Shown here: piece by piece, positions 7,529-55,693 of the stretch | Numbering within the stretch: the stretch's first letter is position 1 | Layout of the letters: every line of letters begins with the position of its first letter | Assembly (NCBI GenBank): GCA_965231125.1 | Contig: OZ246414.1 | Span: 643,924-707,923 of the forward strand | From: an uncultured Gammaproteobacteria bacterium | GTDB taxonomy: Bacteria; Patescibacteriota; Microgenomatia; Woykebacterales; RBG-16-39-9b | Direction of reading: 5' to 3' | Length of the DNA: 64,000 bases | Notes under the pieces: generated by a model | What the model was told of the DNA's origin: nothing | Seen by the model: only the letters and a program-made list of their open reading frames with translations | Databases searched by the model: none | Position numbers and translations under genes: made by a program

Positions 7529-10239
<2,711 letters not shown>

Positions 10240-10312
10240 GCATGTTTTACTATCCCGCAAAGACAGCAATTTGGATTTTTGATCATATCACCCTCGACAT
10301 ATAACCCATAGC

Positions 10313-10341
10313 CTTGACATACAACACAAAGTAATGTATAA
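10313..10341 (+). promoter_or_regulatory. sigma70-like promoter (TTGACA-17-TATAAT)
   Basis: TTGACAtacaacacaaagtaatgTATAAT lies about 35 nt upstream of the GGAGG RBS of the 10381 ORF. Confidence 0.5.
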
Positions 10342-10380
10342 TGTTTAAAGCAATTTTTACCTAGAGGAGGTCGAGAAGAG

Positions 10381-10578
10381 ATGGTACAAAACACACCTGA
10401 TCGTAGTCGCGATGCTGATCGGGAAATGGCGGTTGACATACTTAAGGCACTCGAAAAGCGTATCGGTCGTAAAGGAGTACTTCAAGCAATCAATGATGCT
10501 ATCGAAATTCAAGAGCTTATGGAAATAGCCGAAGAAGTTAATCGCGAGCTTGATGCGGAGAAGAAGAACTCATCTTAA
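10381..10578 (+). CDS. small hypothetical protein (65 aa)
   Basis: ORF with a GGAGG RBS and consensus promoter. Charged helical sequence with no recognisable family. Confidence 0.4.
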   Translation: MVQNTPDRSRDADREMAVDILKALEKRIGRKGVLQAINDAIEIQELMEIAEEVNRELDAEKKNSS

Positions 10579-10747
10579 TAGACCACGTGCAGCGACAGGG
10601 AATCCGCAAGGATTTGGTTTGCGCAAGCAACACCTGTCGCTTCTCTTTCAAATAATTCAGCAAAAGGTTTGACAAAGACCCATAATTGTGTTACCCTACA
10701 AAACTGTCTTGACAATATTTTTATATTGCCATAGATTATTTTTGAAC

Positions 10748-11168
10748 ATCGGAAGTTGAAAGAAGTTCCCTGGGAGCAGATTGGTAGCAAAACCTTTGTT
10801 ATCAGCCTGCTCCCGCGGAGCGCCAGTGGTGACGAGCGAATGGACCGGTAGGGAAGTTGGCAACCGAAGTACCTACCATTGCTCTGAGGTCCGCCAGACT
10901 AAAGGTGAGAAGGGCTTCAAGCCAACTTGCCAGCTCACCACCCTGTGATCAACTGCCTAATTTGAAGCCCAGTGGTTTCGGGTTAGGGTGCCAACAGTTA
11001 CAACGGGGTCCATGTGGTAAACAGCGAGCGGTCACTGGTATTTTGCTGCCGAGAAGACACGATCGAGGGCCGGTTGGATTTTCCACCCCGTCATCCGTCG
11101 CACCTCTCGGCAGCCAGAATTCCCCCGGCAGGTTTAGCTTGAACAAAGCACTGCCGGTTTCTTTTTTC
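10748..11168 (+). ncRNA. candidate structured RNA of ~420 nt, class undetermined (RNase P RNA is one possibility)
   Basis: A GC-rich (~55%) block in ~42% GC surroundings with no credible ORF. Upstream promoter TTGACA-17-TAGATT at ~10710-10738. Many perfect hairpins (GGAAGTT-GAAAG-AAGTTCC; GGGAGCAG...CTGCTCCC). 3' hairpin CCGGCAG...CTGCCGG followed by TTTCTTTTTT. Short stretches resemble RNase P conserved regions (GGTAAACAGCGAGCGG; CAGAATTCCCCCGGC) but are not conclusive. Confidence 0.4.
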
Positions 11169-11205
11169 CTTGTTAATCACCCCAAAAATTGTTAACCTAT
11201 CGTCT

Positions 11206-11901
11206 ATGGCAAGAAACGGATTGAAAGCCGTCCTTTTTGATATCTCCGGCACTCTTATTGATGATTTTGATTTAGTCGTGCAAACCGACGACATTTTTCT
11301 TCGCCGAAGAGGCAAAAGCATGAGTCGGCAGTTTTACATCGACAATTACACTCTAGACTGGAAAAAGTTTTGGGAGGACCTGGGGTTTCCACCAAGCAAA
11401 GAGCTTGTCGATGAATGGGTTGAAATTAACAAATCTCTTATAAGCGAAGGGAAATACGATCTTCACCCGGCAGTTATTAAACTTTTGGCAAAAGCCAAGA
11501 AAAGTTATAAAACGGCGGCCGTTACATCGATGTCGCGGGCAACTCTACTTGCTCATCTGAAAAGAGGGGACATACCACCTCATTTCTTCGATTTTTTATC
11601 GACTGGGGAATTAGATGTACCTCTTAAACCAGCACCAGACCAAATTCTGCTTACACTTGAAAATTTGAAAGTCCGCCCGCAAGAAGCAGTGATGATCGGC
11701 GATACTGATGAAGATGTCGTGGCCGGTAAGAGAGCCGGAACCAAAACAATCAAAGTATCTTGGGGTTACCCGGTGACGTCCTACGGACGACGTTTTCTCG
11801 CCTCGAAGGTCCGAGGCTCGAAAATAAAACAAGAAGTCTTTGCCGAACCCGACCATGTTGTTTCCAGTTTCGAGGAGTTAAAAAACTGGCTCCAAATATA
11901 G
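11206..11901 (+). CDS. HAD-superfamily hydrolase (phosphatase)
   Basis: Motif I FDISGTLIDD (DxD-type nucleophile) and motif IV MIGDTDEDVVAGKRAG. The ORF is open from 11170; the likely ATG is at 11206. Confidence 0.75.
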   Translation: MARNGLKAVLFDISGTLIDDFDLVVQTDDIFLRRRGKSMSRQFYIDNYTLDWKKFWEDLGFPPSKELVDEWVEINKSLISEGKYDLHPAVIKLLAKAKKSYKTAAVTSMSRATLLAHLKRGDIPPHFFDFLSTGELDVPLKPAPDQILLTLENLKVRPQEAVMIGDTDEDVVAGKRAGTKTIKVSWGYPVTSYGRRFLASKVRGSKIKQEVFAEPDHVVSSFEELKNWLQI

Positions 11902-11965
11902 TTTCTGTAAAACAACCGCTAAAGCTTGCCTGCAAGTCTAAATTCAATTATAATAACAAAGTTCT

Positions 11966-14482
11966 ATGGCAAATTCTGAAGACGAATCTCCAAAAGCACC
12001 TGCCGGGGATAGCAATTTAGGCAAAATCACTCCAGTTGAAATAGTGGACGAAATGCAGCGCTCGTATTTGGATTACGCGATGAGCGTTATTGTCTCGCGC
12101 GCGTTGCCAGATGTCCGCGATGGACTCAAACCAGTCCACCGCCGTATCCTTTTCGCCATGCATGAGCTTGGATTAACACACAGCGCTAAATACCGCAAAA
12201 GTGCCACTGTTGTCGGGGAAGTTTTAGGAAAATACCACCCGCACGGAGACGCCCCAGTCTACGACGCTTTAGTGCGTCTAGCTCAAGATTTCGCCATGCG
12301 CTACCCCTTGGTAGACGGTCAGGGAAACTTTGGTTCCGTGGACGGCGATCCACCCGCCGCCATGCGTTATACCGAGGCTAGAATGGCAGAAATCGCCAAC
12401 GAGCTTTTGGACGACATTGAAAAAGATACCGTCAATTTTGCCGACAATTTTGACGCGACGAGGAAAGAACCAAACCCGCTTCCCGGAAAACTTCCAAACC
12501 TTTTGTTGAACGGCTCCGCCGGAATCGCTGTCGGTATGGCCACAAACATTCCACCGCACAACCTGCGTGAAGTTGTCGACGCCACCACCCATTTGATTGA
12601 AAACCCAGAAGCCGATGTCGAGCAATTAATGAAGTTTATTAAAGGACCAGATTTCCCGACGGGTGGGGCAATTTTTGATGCTACCGAAATCACTTCCGCC
12701 TACGCAACCGGAAAGGGGAGAGTAGTGATGCGTGCAAAAGCGGAAATTGAGGAGGATAGAGCTGGTAAGTTTAAAATAATTGTTTCCGAACTTCCTTACC
12801 AAGTTAATAAAGCGCTTCTCATTGCGAGAGTCGCCGAACTTGTAAAAGACAAAAAACTCGAAGGAATCTCGGACTTGCGCGATGAATCAGACAGGCGCGG
12901 GATGAGAATTGTTTTTGAGCTAAAACGGGAGGCCAAACCAAAAAACCTCCTCAACCAGCTTTACAAACACACTTCTATGCAACTTGCCTTCAACGTTAAC
13001 ATGGTGGCTTTGGTAAACGGTACACCGCAAACTCTCACTTTAAAAAAAGTTCTAACTGAATACATTCGCCACCGCCAAGAAGTTGTTACTCGTCGCAGTA
13101 AATTTGAACTAGAAGCTGCAAAAAGAAGAGCCCATATTTTGGAAGGGTTGAAAATCGCTCTCGATCATCTGGATGCCGTGATTAAAACCATCCGCGAATC
13201 CGCCAATGCGGATGTCGCCAGAGCCAACCTGATGAAGCGCTTTAAGCTAACGGAGGTTCAAGCAACGGCTATTCTGGACATGCAGCTTCGCCGTCTCGCC
13301 GCCCTGGAAAGAAAACAAATTGAAGATGAATACAAGGCGGTTTTAAAAACAATTGCTTATTTGGAAAGCCTTTTGGCTTCACCAAAAAAGATCTTGGCAG
13401 TCATTAGTAAGGAACTAACCGAAATAAAAGAAAAATATGGGGACGATCGCCGCACGCGAGTCTACCAACAAGGAGTAGGTGATTTTTCCGAAGAAGATCT
13501 TATCCCTTCCGAACAAGCGATTGTCACCGTAACCCGCGAAGGTTACATAAAGAGAAGCCCGGTCTCCACTTTCCGCACCCAAGCCCGCGGGGGCAGGGGA
13601 GTCTCCGGCCTAACTATGAAGGATGAAGATATTGTGGCAAATTTTTTCTCGGCTAACACCCACGACTCAATAATGTTTTTTTCCAATAAAGGTAAAGTCT
13701 ACCAACTAAAAATTTACGACCTACCAGAAGGCTCGCGAGCCTCCAAAGGACAAGCAGTGGTAAACTTGATTGAAATCGAACAAGGCGAAAAAATAACCTC
13801 CATTGTTAACATTTCCAAAAACATTAAATCGGGTTTCTTATTCATGGCCACAAAAAAGGGAATTGTGAAAAAAACGGCCCTGGCCGAATTTGCCAATATT
13901 CGCCGCAGCGGAATCATTGCCATAAACCTGCAGGGCGGGGATGAGCTTTCGTGGGTTACGTTAACCGGGGGTAGTAACAATATAATAATGGTAACCAAAA
14001 ATGGAATGTCAATTTACTTTGTGGAAAGCCAAGTGCGCAATATGGGCCGCCCAACTGCTGGTGTCGTCGGAATAAAACTTAAGAGGGAGGATGAACTGGT
14101 TTGTATGGATAAAGCCGCAAAGGAAGATATGCTTTTGGTAGTGACTGAAAAAGGTTTTGGTAAAAGAAGTAAAATAGCCGATTGGCCAACTCAAAAAAGA
14201 GCCGGCTCCGGAGTAAAGGCCGCCGAAATAACCTCTCGAAACGGAAAAATAATGGCGGCGATTGTGCTTTCAAAAGAGGATAATGATTTTGTAATTACTT
14301 CCGAAATGGGACAAGTAATTAAATCTCCAATCAAAGATGTGTCCCTCTTAACTCGTCAGACCCAAGGCGTGATTTTAATTCGCCTGGCTAATAAAGACGA
14401 CAAAGTTGCGGCCGTTACTTCTATACTTAAAGAACCAAAGTTAGGAAAGGATAAAGAAATTAAAGTTTTGGGCGAAGCCTAA
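11966..14482 (+). CDS. gyrA: DNA gyrase subunit A
   Basis: [36 protein letters not shown], active-site Tyr region, C-terminal beta-pinwheel repeats. 838 aa. Confidence 0.95.
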
Positions 14483-16242: not shown

Positions 16243-16258
16243 CGAGGAGGTGAGATTT

Positions 16259-16534
16259 GTGTCCTTCGAAAGAAGGAAACTATACAACAACTTGACGGCG
16301 GCGATGGAGTTGGTTGCCGAGACAGGCGAGTGGAGCGATACAACTGTCTTGGTAGGGGTCACAAACGCACTGGCGAGGAGGGAGATTTCGCTAGACCAAA
16401 AAACCGATATCCTTTCTCTCTGGGACACCCTTAAGGAAGAAGATGATGAAGGTAGAACTCTCAGAAGGTTAAGAGAGAGGTGGTACAGAGATCTCGGTAA
16501 GATCCTTGATCTTACAGGAATAGCCGCTGCCTAA
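16259..16534 (+). CDS. hypothetical protein (~91 aa, GTG start after a GAGGAGG RBS)
   Basis: The frame is open from 16175 and overlaps the previous gene. GAGGAGGTGAGATTTGTG suggests a GTG start just after the previous stop. Followed by a strong terminator. Confidence 0.35.
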   Translation: MSFERRKLYNNLTAAMELVAETGEWSDTTVLVGVTNALARREISLDQKTDILSLWDTLKEEDDEGRTLRRLRERWYRDLGKILDLTGIAAA

Positions 16535-16545
16535 CCCAAGGCGCA

Positions 16546-16585
16546 CGTAGAACTTTTTACGTGCGCTTTTCTTTTTCATTTAACC
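16546..16585 (+). terminator. intrinsic terminator
   Basis: GCGCACGTAGAACTTTTTACGTGCGC hairpin followed by TTTTCTTTTT. Confidence 0.5.
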
Positions 16586-16660
16586 TTTTAGCTAGGCAGA
16601 AGTTGCCTAGCGCAAGATGCGAGAATACCTGTGAAGCCAAGAAGCTCGAAGGCTTCGAAG

Positions 16661-25357: not shown

Positions 25358-25956
25358 TAGCTTAAATTATGGAGAGGGGGTGAAACAAATTGGACAAAAA
25401 AACTGCCTTTCAGGCTCTTACGGTACTATCGGCATTATCGGTACTTTTTTCGGCGTCAGATTTCTTTATGAACACACCTGTGTTTGGCTTGGGTGCGGAT
25501 TCCTGGCTTATCGTGGCCATCACTTTAGGAGTCTGGGCCTTGATAGTTAAACAATGGAGTTAGCCCTAGGTGACATAAGCGCAGGTTTTTGATAACTTCC
25601 GCAAAAAAGAAGCCCGGTGGGATCTCGCGTACACCGGGCTCTGGAGGAGAGTGGAGTTGGGTTGTGACCGCCGGCCCGGTGATCGATAACCCAAAATCAC
25701 TCTGAACTCCCTATGTTAGACTTGGCAAGGGAAAACCAGCTACAATTGCGAGAAACTAACTGGTGGATTGATGTGAGTTCGGCTTAGACCTCGGTCACCA
25801 AAGGTTGAGAGCAGTTTTTCACCCGGCTGGAGGTTGTTTCTCACTGGCAGCTAGTCGGACTTTCTCCCTCTTCCAATCTCCCTTACCAAGCCAGTTCAAT
25901 ATTACAACATCAGTCAACTTGGATTTCCAATTTAAGGGGGTTATACTTACAATTAC

Positions 25957-26570
25957 ATGGCTAAAATTGCGCTGATTTTAATTTTTTTTTAATTGGCGCT
26001 CTGGCTTGGTTTTTCTTTCTCAGGGGTTACAGTGTCAAAAAAGTAAGCCGTCAAGGGCCAGTAGTCTTTTTTGGTGACAGCTTAACTGCCGGCGTTGGTG
26101 CCGCCCCGGGTCAGGATTTCCCTACACTTGTCGCAAAAAAACTGGGTTTAACCAATGTGATAAACGCCGGCGTTCCCGGAGACACAACCGCTTCTGCCCT
26201 GGCTCGTCTTCAAACCGACGTTTTAGATAAAAACCCTTCTCTTGTTATGGTGCTGCTCGGCGGTAATGATTTTCTGCAAGGAGTTCCAATCGACACAACC
26301 GTCAAAAACGTTGATGAAATTGTCAGAAGAATTTCGGAGTCTGAGGCAGCGGTCGTACTTGTCCACCTAAGATCCAATATTTTGAATGACAAATACAAGG
26401 CGCCGGCGGCACAAATTGCCAAAAAATACCACGCTGCTTTTGTGCCGGAAGTGCTCGATGGAATTCTTGGCCACCAAGACCTGATGGCCGATCAAGTCCA
26501 CCCCAACGCAAAAGGCTACGAAATTGTCGCAAATCGAACTGCACCCTCTGTCAAAAGCCTGCTTCGCTAG
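25957..26570 (+). CDS. SGNH/GDSL hydrolase, apparently frameshifted at a poly-T tract
   Basis: ATG 25957 encodes a signal-peptide-like MAKIALILIFF, then a stop. The next frame continues LIGALAWFFFLRGYSVKKVSRQGPVVFFGDSLTAG (GDSL block I) into the listed ORF 26157..26570 (blocks III/V: GGNDF, DQVHPNAKGY). No in-frame start codon lies upstream of the GDSL motif. The frames change inside the T-run at ~25982-25990. Confidence 0.6.
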
Positions 26571-49318: not shown

Positions 49319-49341
49319 TATTTGCGGCAGACTAAAAATAT

Positions 49342-49557
49342 ATGCTGGATCCATATTCAACAACTGAAATTAGTTCTACATTAATTTCTGAACTCAAGGA
49401 ATCCTTAATCGGTAAAGATTACGGATCGATCGAGATTTATATAGAATCGGGGAGAGTGGTTCAAATAACCGAGAGGGTTATTAAAAAAACAAGATTAAAC
49501 GAAACTAATAAAAAAGACGAGGTAGTTTATTGGAAACCGATAAGAAATCGTAAGTAA
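49342..49557 (+). CDS. small hypothetical protein (71 aa)
   Basis: ORF only; no family recognised. Confidence 0.35.
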   Translation: MLDPYSTTEISSTLISELKESLIGKDYGSIEIYIESGRVVQITERVIKKTRLNETNKKDEVVYWKPIRNRK

Positions 49558-49582
49558 CTTCTCAGCTCGATATAGTAGGGGA

Positions 49583-49611
49583 TTGACAGGTAGTTTTGGG
49601 GTAACTTATAA
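49583..49611 (+). promoter_or_regulatory. sigma70-like promoter (TTGACA-17-TTATAAT)
   Basis: TTGACAggtagttttggggtaacTTATAAT is a near-consensus promoter. Confidence 0.55.
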
Positions 49612-49649
49612 TCATAAACAAAAGTAATAGTTAGCCGACCGCAAACGGA

Positions 49650-49690
49650 GGCAGCTCTTCAAAGATTTGGAGAAGCTGCCTTTTGGTTTT
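49650..49690 (+). promoter_or_regulatory. terminator-like hairpin inside the 5' leader of the repeat-protein gene (possible attenuator)
   Basis: GGCAGCTCTTCaaagatttgGAGAAGCTGCC followed by TTTTGGTTTTCTT. Lies between the promoter and the AAGGGGGTGA RBS. Confidence 0.4.
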
Positions 49691-49715
49691 CTTAGATTAG
49701 GTTACGAAACTAAAC

Positions 49716-50837
49716 TTGAAAGGGGGTGAAAACATGGAAAAAAGAAAATTAATTTATGCTGCATCAAGTGCTTTTGCTGCTTTGGCTTTCTCATTGACAC
49801 CAGCTCTCGCAGCTGAAGCTTCTAACTCTACAACCGGTGCAGAATCAGACAACGATGCTAGTGTTGACACAACTAACTCTGCTAGTATTTTGCAGACTAA
49901 TACCCAAAGAGTCAGCAATGATATCTCTGTTAATGTAAACACTGGTGACAACAGTGCTGACAAGAACACCGGTGACGGTTCTGTAAGAACTGGTGACGCA
50001 AGCTCTTCAGTTAGCCTTTCAAACTTAGGCAACAAGAACTCTGCAACCCTTTCTTTCTCAGGCGCTGGAGACAGCTCAGCTTCTAACGATCACACTGGTT
50101 ACAACTCAGACAACGATGCCAGCGTTAGCGTTGACAACGAGTTAGATCTAACCCAGGCAAATGACGCCTACGTAAGCAACCGAGTTTCCGTAGACGTAGA
50201 CACTGGTGACAACAGTGCTGACAAGAACACCGGTGACGGTTCTGTAAGAACTGGTGACGCAAGTGCCGATGTTTCGATTGAGAATATGCTCAATAAAAAC
50301 AAGTTGACCGTGAACATGGCCGACAGTGGTGACCCATCAGCTTCTAACTCTACAACTGGTGCAAAGTCAGACAACGATGCTAGTGTTGACGTAAGTAACG
50401 ATGCCGACGTTTTACAAACAAACGATCTTTCAGTTTGCAATGACGTTGATGTTGACGTTGAAACTGGTGACAACAGTGCTGACAAGAACACCGGTGACGG
50501 AAGTGTAACTAGCGGTGATGCTGCTGTTACAGTGGATGTTTCCAACTCTGGAAACACTAACTCAGCTTCGCTCAATGATGCCGGCGATCCAGACAACCAG
50601 GTCTCAAATGACCACACTGGTTTTGACTCAGAAAACGATGCTGATGTCAGCATCGACAATGAATTAGATCTGACTCAAGCGAATGAATCCGACATTTACA
50701 ACTCTGGTGATGTATCGGGAGACACTGGTGACAACAGTGCTGACAAGAACACCGGTGACGGCAAAGTCACAACTGGTGACTCTTCTGACGTTGACGTTTC
50801 TGTTTCAACCGACGTCAACTCTAACAGCCTTAAATAG
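49716..50837 (+). CDS. secreted repeat protein (paralogue 1 of 3): signal peptide plus four ~87-aa Asn/Asp/Ser-rich repeats
   Basis: Signal peptide MKGGENMEKRKLIYAASSAFAALAFSLTPALA. Repeated units ...SDNDASVD..LQTN...VSN..SV(N/D)V(N/D)TGDNSADKNTGDGSVRTGDAS... Confidence 0.7.
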   Translation: MKGGENMEKRKLIYAASSAFAALAFSLTPALAAEASNSTTGAESDNDASVDTTNSASILQTNTQRVSNDISVNVNTGDNSADKNTGDGSVRTGDASSSVSLSNLGNKNSATLSFSGAGDSSASNDHTGYNSDNDASVSVDNELDLTQANDAYVSNRVSVDVDTGDNSADKNTGDGSVRTGDASADVSIENMLNKNKLTVNMADSGDPSASNSTTGAKSDNDASVDVSNDADVLQTNDLSVCNDVDVDVETGDNSADKNTGDGSVTSGDAAVTVDVSNSGNTNSASLNDAGDPDNQVSNDHTGFDSENDADVSIDNELDLTQANESDIYNSGDVSGDTGDNSADKNTGDGKVTTGDSSDVDVSVSTDVNSNSLK

Positions 50838-54406: not shown

Positions 54407-54750
54407 TTGAACGGAGAAAATCTACTTCTCGCTAAGTGGGACGAAATAGCATCTGTCCTGAAAGCAGAAATCGATCCACATACCCGGGATATTAAGGTGC
54501 AGGAGGGAGACCTCGTTCTATAGATTTTCAGAGCAGGTGCGGCAAACAACAACTTATCCTTCTTACACATAAAGGAAGGCAGCCGGCCAGTTGGACCAAT
54601 GATCGAATACGGCCCTGTCCTAGATGTTGGATTTGAAAGAGACCATGAGGAAGACCCTGACGGGAACGTAGTAATCATCGAATTAGGACAGGAATTGATC
54701 TGGGATGTAGAGATCTACCGCGATACAAAAGTTACACTCAGCTCGCCCTA
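54407..54750 (+). pseudogene. ~115-codon ORF interrupted by a single in-frame TAG (apparent nonsense mutation)
   Basis: AAAGGAGAAAGGG RBS then TTG. Reads ...NGENLLLAKWDEIASVLKAEIDPHTRDIKVQEGDLVL*IFRAGAANNNLSFLHIKEGSRPVGPMIEYGPVLDVGFERDHEEDPDGNVVIIELGQELIWDVEIYRDTKVTLSSP. Both halves are in one frame in my reading. Confidence 0.3.
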
Positions 54751-55300
54751 GTAAAGATTGCTGCTGGCAGACCTTGGGTAAACCAAGTTTAGGCCAGCTT
54801 TTTTCTTTTTCAAGATTTTTATAACTTGAATCTAAAAACACCAATATTGATTGGTATCTCAACCTATTTTTGACACTTTACCTACAAAGTCCAGGGGCTA
54901 GGAGGCTAGCGATTTTCAACATTAATTGCCACTTTTGCCTTATCTAACAGTCTTTTTGGTAATTTTACGGAAGTAACTCCAGAAAAAATTTTTCCAATAA
55001 AGTGGAAAAAGAGAATAGCCCCAAACTAACTAAGGGAAAATAAAGTCTGCTTCAGGCAGGGGAAATAAAATTTTATAAATATATCCCGGTGGGGAGCCTA
55101 GTAACATGTCGCATAAGATACATTGTGCGACGTAGTATTAAATTGAGTCTGGATCAGTAAGAACGAGAGAAGTGGCGTTAGGGAAAAGGAAAAAATTTGT
55201 CTTGTAGTTTATTTAAAACACTTTACACTTCTATAAGTAGTCGTCTTTTATTCAAAGTCGGCACCTGGGCTATTACAGGACGTCGTTTTTAGCTTTCTTA

Positions 55301-55360
55301 AGCGCAGAGCGCGAAGCGATCTTCAGTCCGAAGGGCGCAGATCGCAAAGCGATCTATTTT
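55301..55360. repeat. two ~21-nt direct repeats, each a stem-loop, in a gene-poor AT-rich region
   Basis: GCGCAGAGCGCGAAGCGATCT and GCGCAGATCGCAAAGCGATCT. The second (AGATCGCAAAGCGATCT) is a perfect 7-bp hairpin followed by ATTTTG. Confidence 0.4.
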
Positions 55361-55693
55361 GCTTGTTACTACGATCAATATTTTAACTTTTACCCTTGAA
55401 ATATTTATAATTTGCTACCCATATAGACGTAAGAGGAAGTAGCACTCTACCAAGAGGTGCGTCAGCACCGAAAGTCTTTCGGGTTTTTTTGGATCGGGCG
55501 ATTAATTTAGTAATCTGTACTACACCCTATAGTTCAAACTTTCCACACATGAAAACTAACTATATCACACTACATCACTATCCAGCTCAGCAATAATTGC
55601 AATCCTCCAAAAAGGGGACTCGCCCGCCCCACTCCTCTACTCTAACTCGCCTGCCCGCTTTTTTTACTTTTGACTTTTGAATTTTTTAATTTG

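Follow-up and report, generated by a model that had tools for sequence, protein, structure and literature searches.

What is encoded in the long spacer between gyrB and gyrA in the 64,000-nt stretch of contig OZ246414.1 analyzed here (the window)? An earlier note described in this spacer a promoter-driven 65-amino-acid (65-aa) open reading frame (ORF) and, behind a second promoter, a hairpin-packed block of ~420 nt, for which it considered RNase P RNA or transfer-messenger RNA (tmRNA). All of the features that it described were found in place and had been described accurately; the proposed identity did not hold up. We propose that the block at 10745-11167 is probably a noncoding RNA (ncRNA) gene that is lineage restricted, independently transcribed, composed of multiple hairpins, and outside the described families. 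As read from the sequence, it has two members, the second of which lies in the same spacer of a Woykebacteria metagenome contig, L086. The RNA is accessory, one of several alternative cargoes in a hypervariable gyrB-gyrA slot of Woykebacteria. The related gyrB loci referred to below are named L002, L085 to L088, L090 to L092, L156 and L157, L184, and L187 to L189.

A candidate RNA gene with its own promoter and terminator

The predicted gene, its parts, and its neighbors are as follows.

8218-10239, + strand: gyrB
10669-10697, + strand: upstream promoter-like site P1 (TTGACA-17-TACCCT), which carries a conserved ACCCATA box
10709-10737, + strand: RNA promoter P2 (TTGACA-17-TAGATT), with its position and -35 hexamer kept in L086
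10745-11167, + strand: predicted ncRNA transcript of ~420 nt, 54% GC, its 5' end placed from the -10 box
10753-10764, + strand: purine-rich leader AAGUUGARAGAA, conserved in L086
10765-10821, + strand: hairpin A, irregular, 25 bp, the conserved core between the window RNA and the L086 RNA
10823-10830, + strand: 5' strand of a predicted long-range helix (CCAGUGGU), which pairs with 11031-11038 and closes the central region
10956-10987, + strand: 14-bp hairpin with four G-U pairs, within the variable central region
11031-11038, + strand: 3' strand of the long-range helix (GUCACUGG), which pairs with 10823-10830
11040-11120, + strand: hairpin B, long and irregular (GCUGCCGAGA.../...UCUCGGCAGC; -35 kcal/mol, z -4.9), unalignable with L086
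11125-11167, + strand: intrinsic terminator, with the stem CCGGCAGG...CUGCCGG at 11125-11157, followed by UUUCUUUUUU
11207-11901, + strand: HAD-family hydrolase gene, a near-orphan cargo that shares the gyrB-gyrA spacer with the RNA
11966-14482: gyrA

As the earlier note had claimed, the block is framed by a second promoter, P2, and by a terminator in which a stem precedes a U-tract. Its own promoter and an intrinsic terminator thus stand on one strand and both are kept in L086, the terminator in its stem as well as in its tail, which is the generic mark of an ncRNA gene. A scan for consensus terminators had missed the stem because its loop is longer than 8 nt. The counterpart of P1 in L086 reads TTGACA-17-TATGCT. 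The purine-rich leader is complementary to the pyrimidine tail past the terminator, and the two are paired in the minimum free energy (MFE) folds of both the window RNA and the L086 RNA; these models suggest that the 5' leader and the 3' tail may pair in both homologs. The GC content of the block reaches 54.4% (10745-11165) versus 43.7% for the whole window, so that the block is indeed GC-richer than its surroundings, although "much more," as it had been put, was generous.

The + strand is predicted to be strongly structured. Positions 10740-11170 fold to -174.8 kcal/mol (z -6.34), a value that none of 100 shuffled sequences equaled, versus z -2.23 for the - strand of the block, and the + strand of the L086 RNA folds with z -5.5. 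The MFE folds of the + strand contain 22 G-U pairs in the window and 29 in L086, compared to 12 and 18, respectively, for the - strand. The hairpin-rich character attributed to the block was thus recovered, though the fold excess comes down to a small number of long hairpins: hairpin A, the one at 10956-10987, hairpin B, and the terminator. We also searched for loop-motif repeats of the CsrB or RNAIII kind common to the window and L086 RNAs and found none.

Might the block instead encode a protein, either from its longest ORF (10857-11195) or as a small leader peptide? A frame of 112 codons is open in the block, and a TTG-initiated frame begins in the conserved leader of both homologs. However, the 112-aa ORF is Pro/Arg/Ser-rich, has no Pfam match, was not called by the gene callers in three assemblies, and is not conserved in L086, whose longest ORF has 57 aa. 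Moreover, the leader frames of the two homologs lose their common register ahead of the conserved CCAGYGGUGAC block. With no ORF common to the two homologs, the absence of a plausible coding frame was confirmed, and we regard a protein-coding block as hardly credible.

Conservation and covariation in a second locus

The sole homolog of the RNA occupies the same spacer of L086, whose GyrB is 84% identical to that of the window (73.5% nucleotide identity for gyrB). With nhmmer, window positions 10665-10835 align to L086 7938-8110 over ~170 nt (E 9e-8) and the terminator region aligns to L086 8508-8572. Directly after its gyrB stop codon, L086 carries a tandem promoter region with the ACCCATA box, the leader AAGUUGAGAGAA, a long hairpin, and the block CCAGCGGUGAC; next come ~400 nt of unalignable, hairpin-rich sequence and then the CCGGCAGG...CUGCCGG terminator with its U-tract. 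Accordingly, the length of the RNA differs, ~420 nt in the window versus ~535 nt in L086. Contigs of a sister population are identical to the window across the RNA, and a recombination tract that would join the L086 locus to the window was looked for at the 3' end of gyrB and not seen.

L086 was realigned with a covariance model, R1, for which the window sequence was the only input. In a search of 36 loci, R1 hits L086 (40 bits, E ~1e-8) and no other locus. On the R1 alignment, hairpin A is 98% paired over its 25 pairs, eight of which are compensatory with both sides changed, while slid controls gave 40-52%. Hairpin A was not recovered by RNAalifold on a plain MAFFT alignment, because that alignment is not structure consistent. 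The long-range helix corresponds in L086 to 8098-8105/8211-8218, with one compensatory change from U-A to C-G, and it encloses 200 nt in the window and 105 nt in L086. Hence, the earlier description of a noncoding, hairpin-rich unit running from promoter to terminator on the + strand is strengthened for its 5' part, which is kept with compensatory changes in L086. The same note had named, as grounds for dismissing the RNA, the lack of an Rfam match together with a lack of conservation or covariation in relatives: Rfam indeed gave no match, but conservation and covariation were both seen in one relative.

From this comparison, sequence constraint appears limited to the ends of the RNA, that is, to the leader, hairpin A, the base of the next domain, and the terminator. 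Such a distribution makes the 5' module the most likely working part.

A hypervariable slot between gyrB and gyrA

The best named relatives of the window GyrB are Woykebacteria, which places the window in that lineage. Orthologous loci were gathered through GyrB relatives with 79-87% aligned identity. Their flanking synteny is kept (type II secretion/pilus genes, holB-like, gyrB, gyrA, SHMT, and recombinase), and all insertions follow the gyrB stop codon and precede a conserved CTTGTTRAACCTRAGTA gyrA-promoter region. The gyrB-gyrA spacers have the following coordinates.

Window: 10240-11965
L002: 7900-8446
L085: 7939-9028
L086: 7939-8620
L088: 7939-7987
L090: 5314-5339
L092: 6933-6971
L156: 3970-5370
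L157: 5256-6255
L184: 4858-5991

The spacer measures 26-89 nt in L088, L090, L092, and L187 to L189. It is 26 nt long in L090, the closest relative of the window (GyrB 87% identical). In L088, whose GyrB shares 94% identity with the L086 protein, 49 nt stand where L086 has the RNA, and the gyrA promoter is the same as in L086. The other loci differ in their cargo. L085, L157, and L184 have an orphan ORF of 161-175 aa, L156 and L091 have an unrelated one of 152 aa, and the Gottesmanbacteria locus L002 has a pyrophosphatase gene; in L086 and L087, the spacer spans 682 nt and contains no gene. Since close relatives have either very short spacers or unrelated ORFs at this position, the RNA is a cargo of a hypervariable slot rather than a housekeeping gene. 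We rejected the idea that the block arose by decay of the slot ORFs seen in relatives, as the cargo ORFs of related loci gave no tblastn match in it.

The proximity of the HAD gene raised the question of whether the block acts in cis, as a long 5' untranslated region (UTR) with a terminator or attenuator for HAD or as the 3' UTR of the small-ORF or gyrB transcript. The terminator ends 39 nt upstream of the HAD start codon, the HAD gene's own promoter is weak at best (TTGTTA-17-TAACCT), and the poor U-tract after the small ORF makes read-through plausible. In L086, however, the RNA stands without HAD or the small ORF and is followed by a normal gyrA promoter that the RNA-less L088 also uses, so that a leader dedicated to HAD is unlikely. 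In addition, the nearest HAD homolog (43% identical) is located elsewhere, beside rpsL, without such an RNA upstream, and no riboswitch or leader family matched. A cis-acting role therefore seems improbable to us. The HAD gene, a near-orphan, and the small ORF, an orphan, are of no help as synteny anchors.

Searches beyond these loci gave no further member. Neither nhmmer nor blastn found a homolog of the RNA in 80 gyrB loci of GTDB species, all of them distant (GyrB at most 63% identical), and a blastn search of phage and plasmid sequences with both RNAs gave no match. Two-block DNA patterns derived from both homologs hit viral and metagenome contigs only by chance, in coding regions; for the metagenome contigs this is a weak negative, given that their scan missed Ga0136847_11216926 (window population) and Ga0452210_001895 (L086), both of which contain the pattern. 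As for signs of mobility, the block is single copy in the window and the comparison of L086 with L088 showed no flanking repeats.

A different explanation is that the block is a nonfunctional remnant, either junk rich in hairpins or a mobile or foreign cassette that is decaying in a recombination hotspot, its promoter and terminator being left over from the slot. The hypervariable, orphan-filled slot would suit such an origin, as would the interior of the RNA, which is unconstrained in sequence and length, the central region with no significant structure of its own, and the terminator tail shared by all cargo types. Yet the ~170-nt nhmmer match is unexpected for unconstrained DNA when the adjacent gyrB genes are 73.5% identical, hairpin A has been kept through eight double changes, and the asymmetry in G-U pairs and between strands points to selection on the + strand RNA. 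Pure junk is unlikely on these three grounds. The borders, moreover, lack repeats, transposase, integrase, and target duplications. We thus hold a remnant to be unlikely, though the least unlikely of the alternatives, and retain the reading of the block as an ncRNA gene.

The orphan-ORF cassettes of the slot carry conserved noncoding elements of their own (L085 8075-8237 and 8733-8935; L156 4688-4965; L184 4945-5126 and 5613-5865; L091 6975-7053). One is a 5' UTR that begins with CGCCAAYRGC after the -10 box. The other, a 3' element of ~200 nt, contains a CAGGCAG.../...CUGCCUG hairpin with covariation, a CCUAAGYAAAU paired with GGUUUUCUUAGG, and a GGGGUC/GACC terminator followed by GUUUUUCUUUU. 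This may represent a second unannotated structured RNA motif; L085 had no Rfam match at gathering thresholds. Separately, GyrB has 673 aa in this genome versus 642-645 aa in its nearest relatives, and the extra length is an internally repeated insert at residues ~222-255 (window ~8880-8990).

Comparison with known RNA families

Rfam 15 returned zero matches at gathering thresholds in the window, L085, L086, and L088; the families covered include 6S, signal recognition particle (SRP) RNA, OLE, GOLLD, ROOL, HEARO, raiA, group I/II introns, riboswitches, and ribozymes. Across the 64-kb window, ARAGORN likewise found no tRNA or tmRNA gene. The Rfam comparison that the earlier note had proposed was extended to E ≤ 10 on short inputs (1.1 kb, 431 nt, and the L086 spacer) with relaxed filters, and among the matches listed, which reach down to ~13-17 bits, nothing relevant appeared, RNase P, tmRNA, SRP, and 6S included, in either homolog. 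The subthreshold rows were generic hairpin matches, such as microRNA (miRNA) precursors and COG3860 on the strand opposite the terminator. Other long intergenic stretches of the window lie at 25358-26156 (46% GC), 54679-55693 (39% GC), and 16243-16660 (48% GC).

Is the block nevertheless a divergent housekeeping RNA, the RNase P RNA or tmRNA of this candidate phyla radiation (CPR) genome? The size of ~420 nt, the GC excess, and the separate promoter and terminator would fit, and the window, which represents only ~7% of the genome, contains no RNase P RNA or tmRNA elsewhere. Literature searches on CPR ncRNAs turned up a single report, on diverged CPR RNase P RNAs, which can fall below Rfam thresholds and were found at low bit scores (PMC8172020). 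A negative model search is therefore not decisive by itself, and the case rests mainly on the comparison with relatives.

The likeness to RNase P RNA (RF00010/RF00011) extends to length (~330-450 nt), a GC content above that of an AT-rich genome, and a stand-alone gene with its own promoter and terminator. The conserved regions CR-I and CR-V form the P4 pseudoknot of RNase P RNA, and the motifs that we searched for, GAGGAAAGUCC and ACAGAANCCGGCUUA, are those of Escherichia coli M1 RNA. No match to either P4 strand was found on the + strand of 10745-11167 with up to 2 or 3 mismatches, and matches over the whole window were at or below chance; the resemblance to RNase P conserved regions noted earlier was thus not recovered. 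Furthermore, no core can be aligned between the two homologs, whereas RNase P is most strongly conserved in its catalytic core, and the RNA is missing from the L088 slot despite the 94% identity between the L088 and L086 GyrB proteins. tmRNA (ssrA) is similar in length, GC excess, and stand-alone organization, but the window RNA has no tRNA-like acceptor or T-arm and no tag frame and is accessory. RNase P RNA and tmRNA were both rejected, as the core is the least conserved part of the window RNA and the RNA is dispensable from the slot and absent from the spacers of close relatives. A divergent housekeeping RNA is very improbable.

With GOLLD, ROOL, HEARO, OLE, and raiA, the RNA shares a length of several hundred nucleotides, a strong predicted structure, a patchy distribution among close relatives, and a location in variable regions, as well as the GC-rich intergenic island in an AT-rich genome that has served as a signature for finding such RNAs. 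In contrast to them, it has conserved only ~90-135 nt of its 5' end and its terminator, and its interior is a chain of hairpins that varies and in which no conserved multihelix junction or pseudoknot was evident. Staphylococcus aureus RNAIII offers another parallel, with its ~0.4-0.5 kb of serial hairpins, strong promoter, intrinsic terminator, and strain-variable locus beside a small peptide gene. Unlike RNAIII, the window RNA has no embedded peptide ORF and no repeated C-rich or other common loop motif, and an anti-Shine-Dalgarno (SD) mechanism is unlikely because most genes in the window lack an SD motif.

The neighboring small-ORF unit

The RNA promoters are preceded by a second unit at 10293-10650, with the following features.

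10293-10313, + strand: copy of the 'GACA..ACCCATAG' box, which precedes the small-ORF promoter and also occurs upstream of the RNA promoter
10314-10342, + strand: sigma-70-type promoter TTGACA-17-TATAAT (12/12 consensus), which drives the small ORF
10366-10370, + strand: GGAGG SD sequence, 10 nt upstream of the ATG
10381-10578, + strand: orphan ORF of 65 aa, charged, predicted to form a single long helix
10591-10650, + strand: branched hairpin GCGACAGG...CCUGUCGC, then UUCUCUUUC, a weak terminator-like end of the small-ORF unit

The promoter-driven ORF claimed earlier is thus present with a perfect promoter and a GGAGG. Perfect consensus promoters number just two in the 64 kb, against 0.01 expected. 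The hairpin after the stop codon folds to -24.6 kcal/mol (z -2.65) and is followed by a poor U-tract. A single-sequence AlphaFold2 (AF2) model shows one helix over residues 8-64 with a predicted local distance difference test (pLDDT) score of 88.6, and the sole single-nucleotide polymorphism (SNP) of the sister population in this ORF (10530) is synonymous. No homolog other than the ORF itself was found among 5.8e9 proteins and 1.84e9 representatives, Pfam and PHROG gave no match, and PADLOC gave no credible one. The promoter, an SD sequence that is among the few complete ones in a genome of mostly SD-less or leaderless-looking genes, the post-stop hairpin, the helix model, and the synonymous SNP lead us to think that the ORF may well be a real small-protein gene; its orphan status and its absence from L086 are points against this.

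A three-way alignment of promoter regions recovered T(T/C)GACA-N(1-4)-ACCCATA(G/A) at window positions 10293-10313 and 10669-10690 and at L086 7941-7962. Judged by this alignment, the small-ORF promoter region appears to be a paralogous copy of the RNA promoter region. The paralogy suggests common regulation, and the recurrence of the ACCCATA-type box suggests that the promoter region was duplicated or that the sites serve the same regulator.

The other perfect promoter of the window, TTGACA-N18-TATAAT at 49583-49612, precedes the ORF at 49716, within an AT-rich intergenic region of 397 nt (49319-49715). Only ~9 of the 47 long ORFs of the window have an SD-like motif, and in several genes a TATAAT box ends 8-11 nt upstream of the ATG (for example, gyrA at 11940-11968 and L088 at 7970-7990). 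The combination suggests widespread leaderless mRNAs in this lineage.

A tentative model and its implications

Several observations weigh against the interpretation of the block as a large, structured ncRNA gene. Transcription of the block is a prediction from sequence. The two RNAs have no alignable core, their interiors differing in sequence as well as in length. With two independent members, the covariation rests on one pairwise, structure-fitted alignment. The central multibranch region of 216 nt is not significantly structured by itself (z -1.5, 15 of 200 shuffles as good), and as most of the RNA is also unalignable, "large structured RNA" may overstate what is there; the functional unit could be ~90-135 nt. 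Every type of slot cargo has a U-rich terminator tail, so the complementarity between leader and tail may be incidental. Finally, the absence of the RNA from relatives applies to the gyrB-gyrA slot and not to the rest of their genomes.

On the reading of the block as an ncRNA gene, we offer a specific mechanism only tentatively. The RNA would be transcribed from the + strand by the sigma-70-type promoter P2, possibly also by the upstream P1, and transcription would stop at its own intrinsic terminator. It would fold as a chain of long hairpins, the purine-rich 5' leader pairing with the pyrimidine tail to close and stabilize the molecule. The 5' module (leader, hairpin A, and the base of the next domain) could serve as a double-stranded element for recognition or processing, with a protein binding to it or an RNase III-type enzyme cutting it, and the RNA might be stable and act in trans. 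A bolder proposal, which we consider speculative, is that this RNA founds a new class of accessory, RNA-only gene cassettes that CPR strains exchange in a hypervariable slot flanked by core genes. In this scenario, a stable, multihairpin RNA, whose 5' double-stranded module is conserved while its interior evolves freely, would need no dedicated protein partner; it could, for example, serve as a decoy or sponge in conflicts with phages or between host and symbiont.

The locus also calls for some caution, since GC-rich structured islands of ~400 nt in AT-rich genomes are not automatically RNase P RNA or tmRNA, and checks of genome completeness based on these two RNAs should not count the window locus. 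If our interpretation is correct, the very small RNA catalogue of the CPR/Patescibacteria, bacteria with reduced genomes that are generally assumed to encode little that is not essential, would gain an unclassified ncRNA of ~0.4-0.5 kb. The junction of gyrB and gyrA in Woykebacteria is also a strain-variable slot for orphan proteins and RNAs, and slots of this kind are good places to seek functions in conflict or symbiosis.

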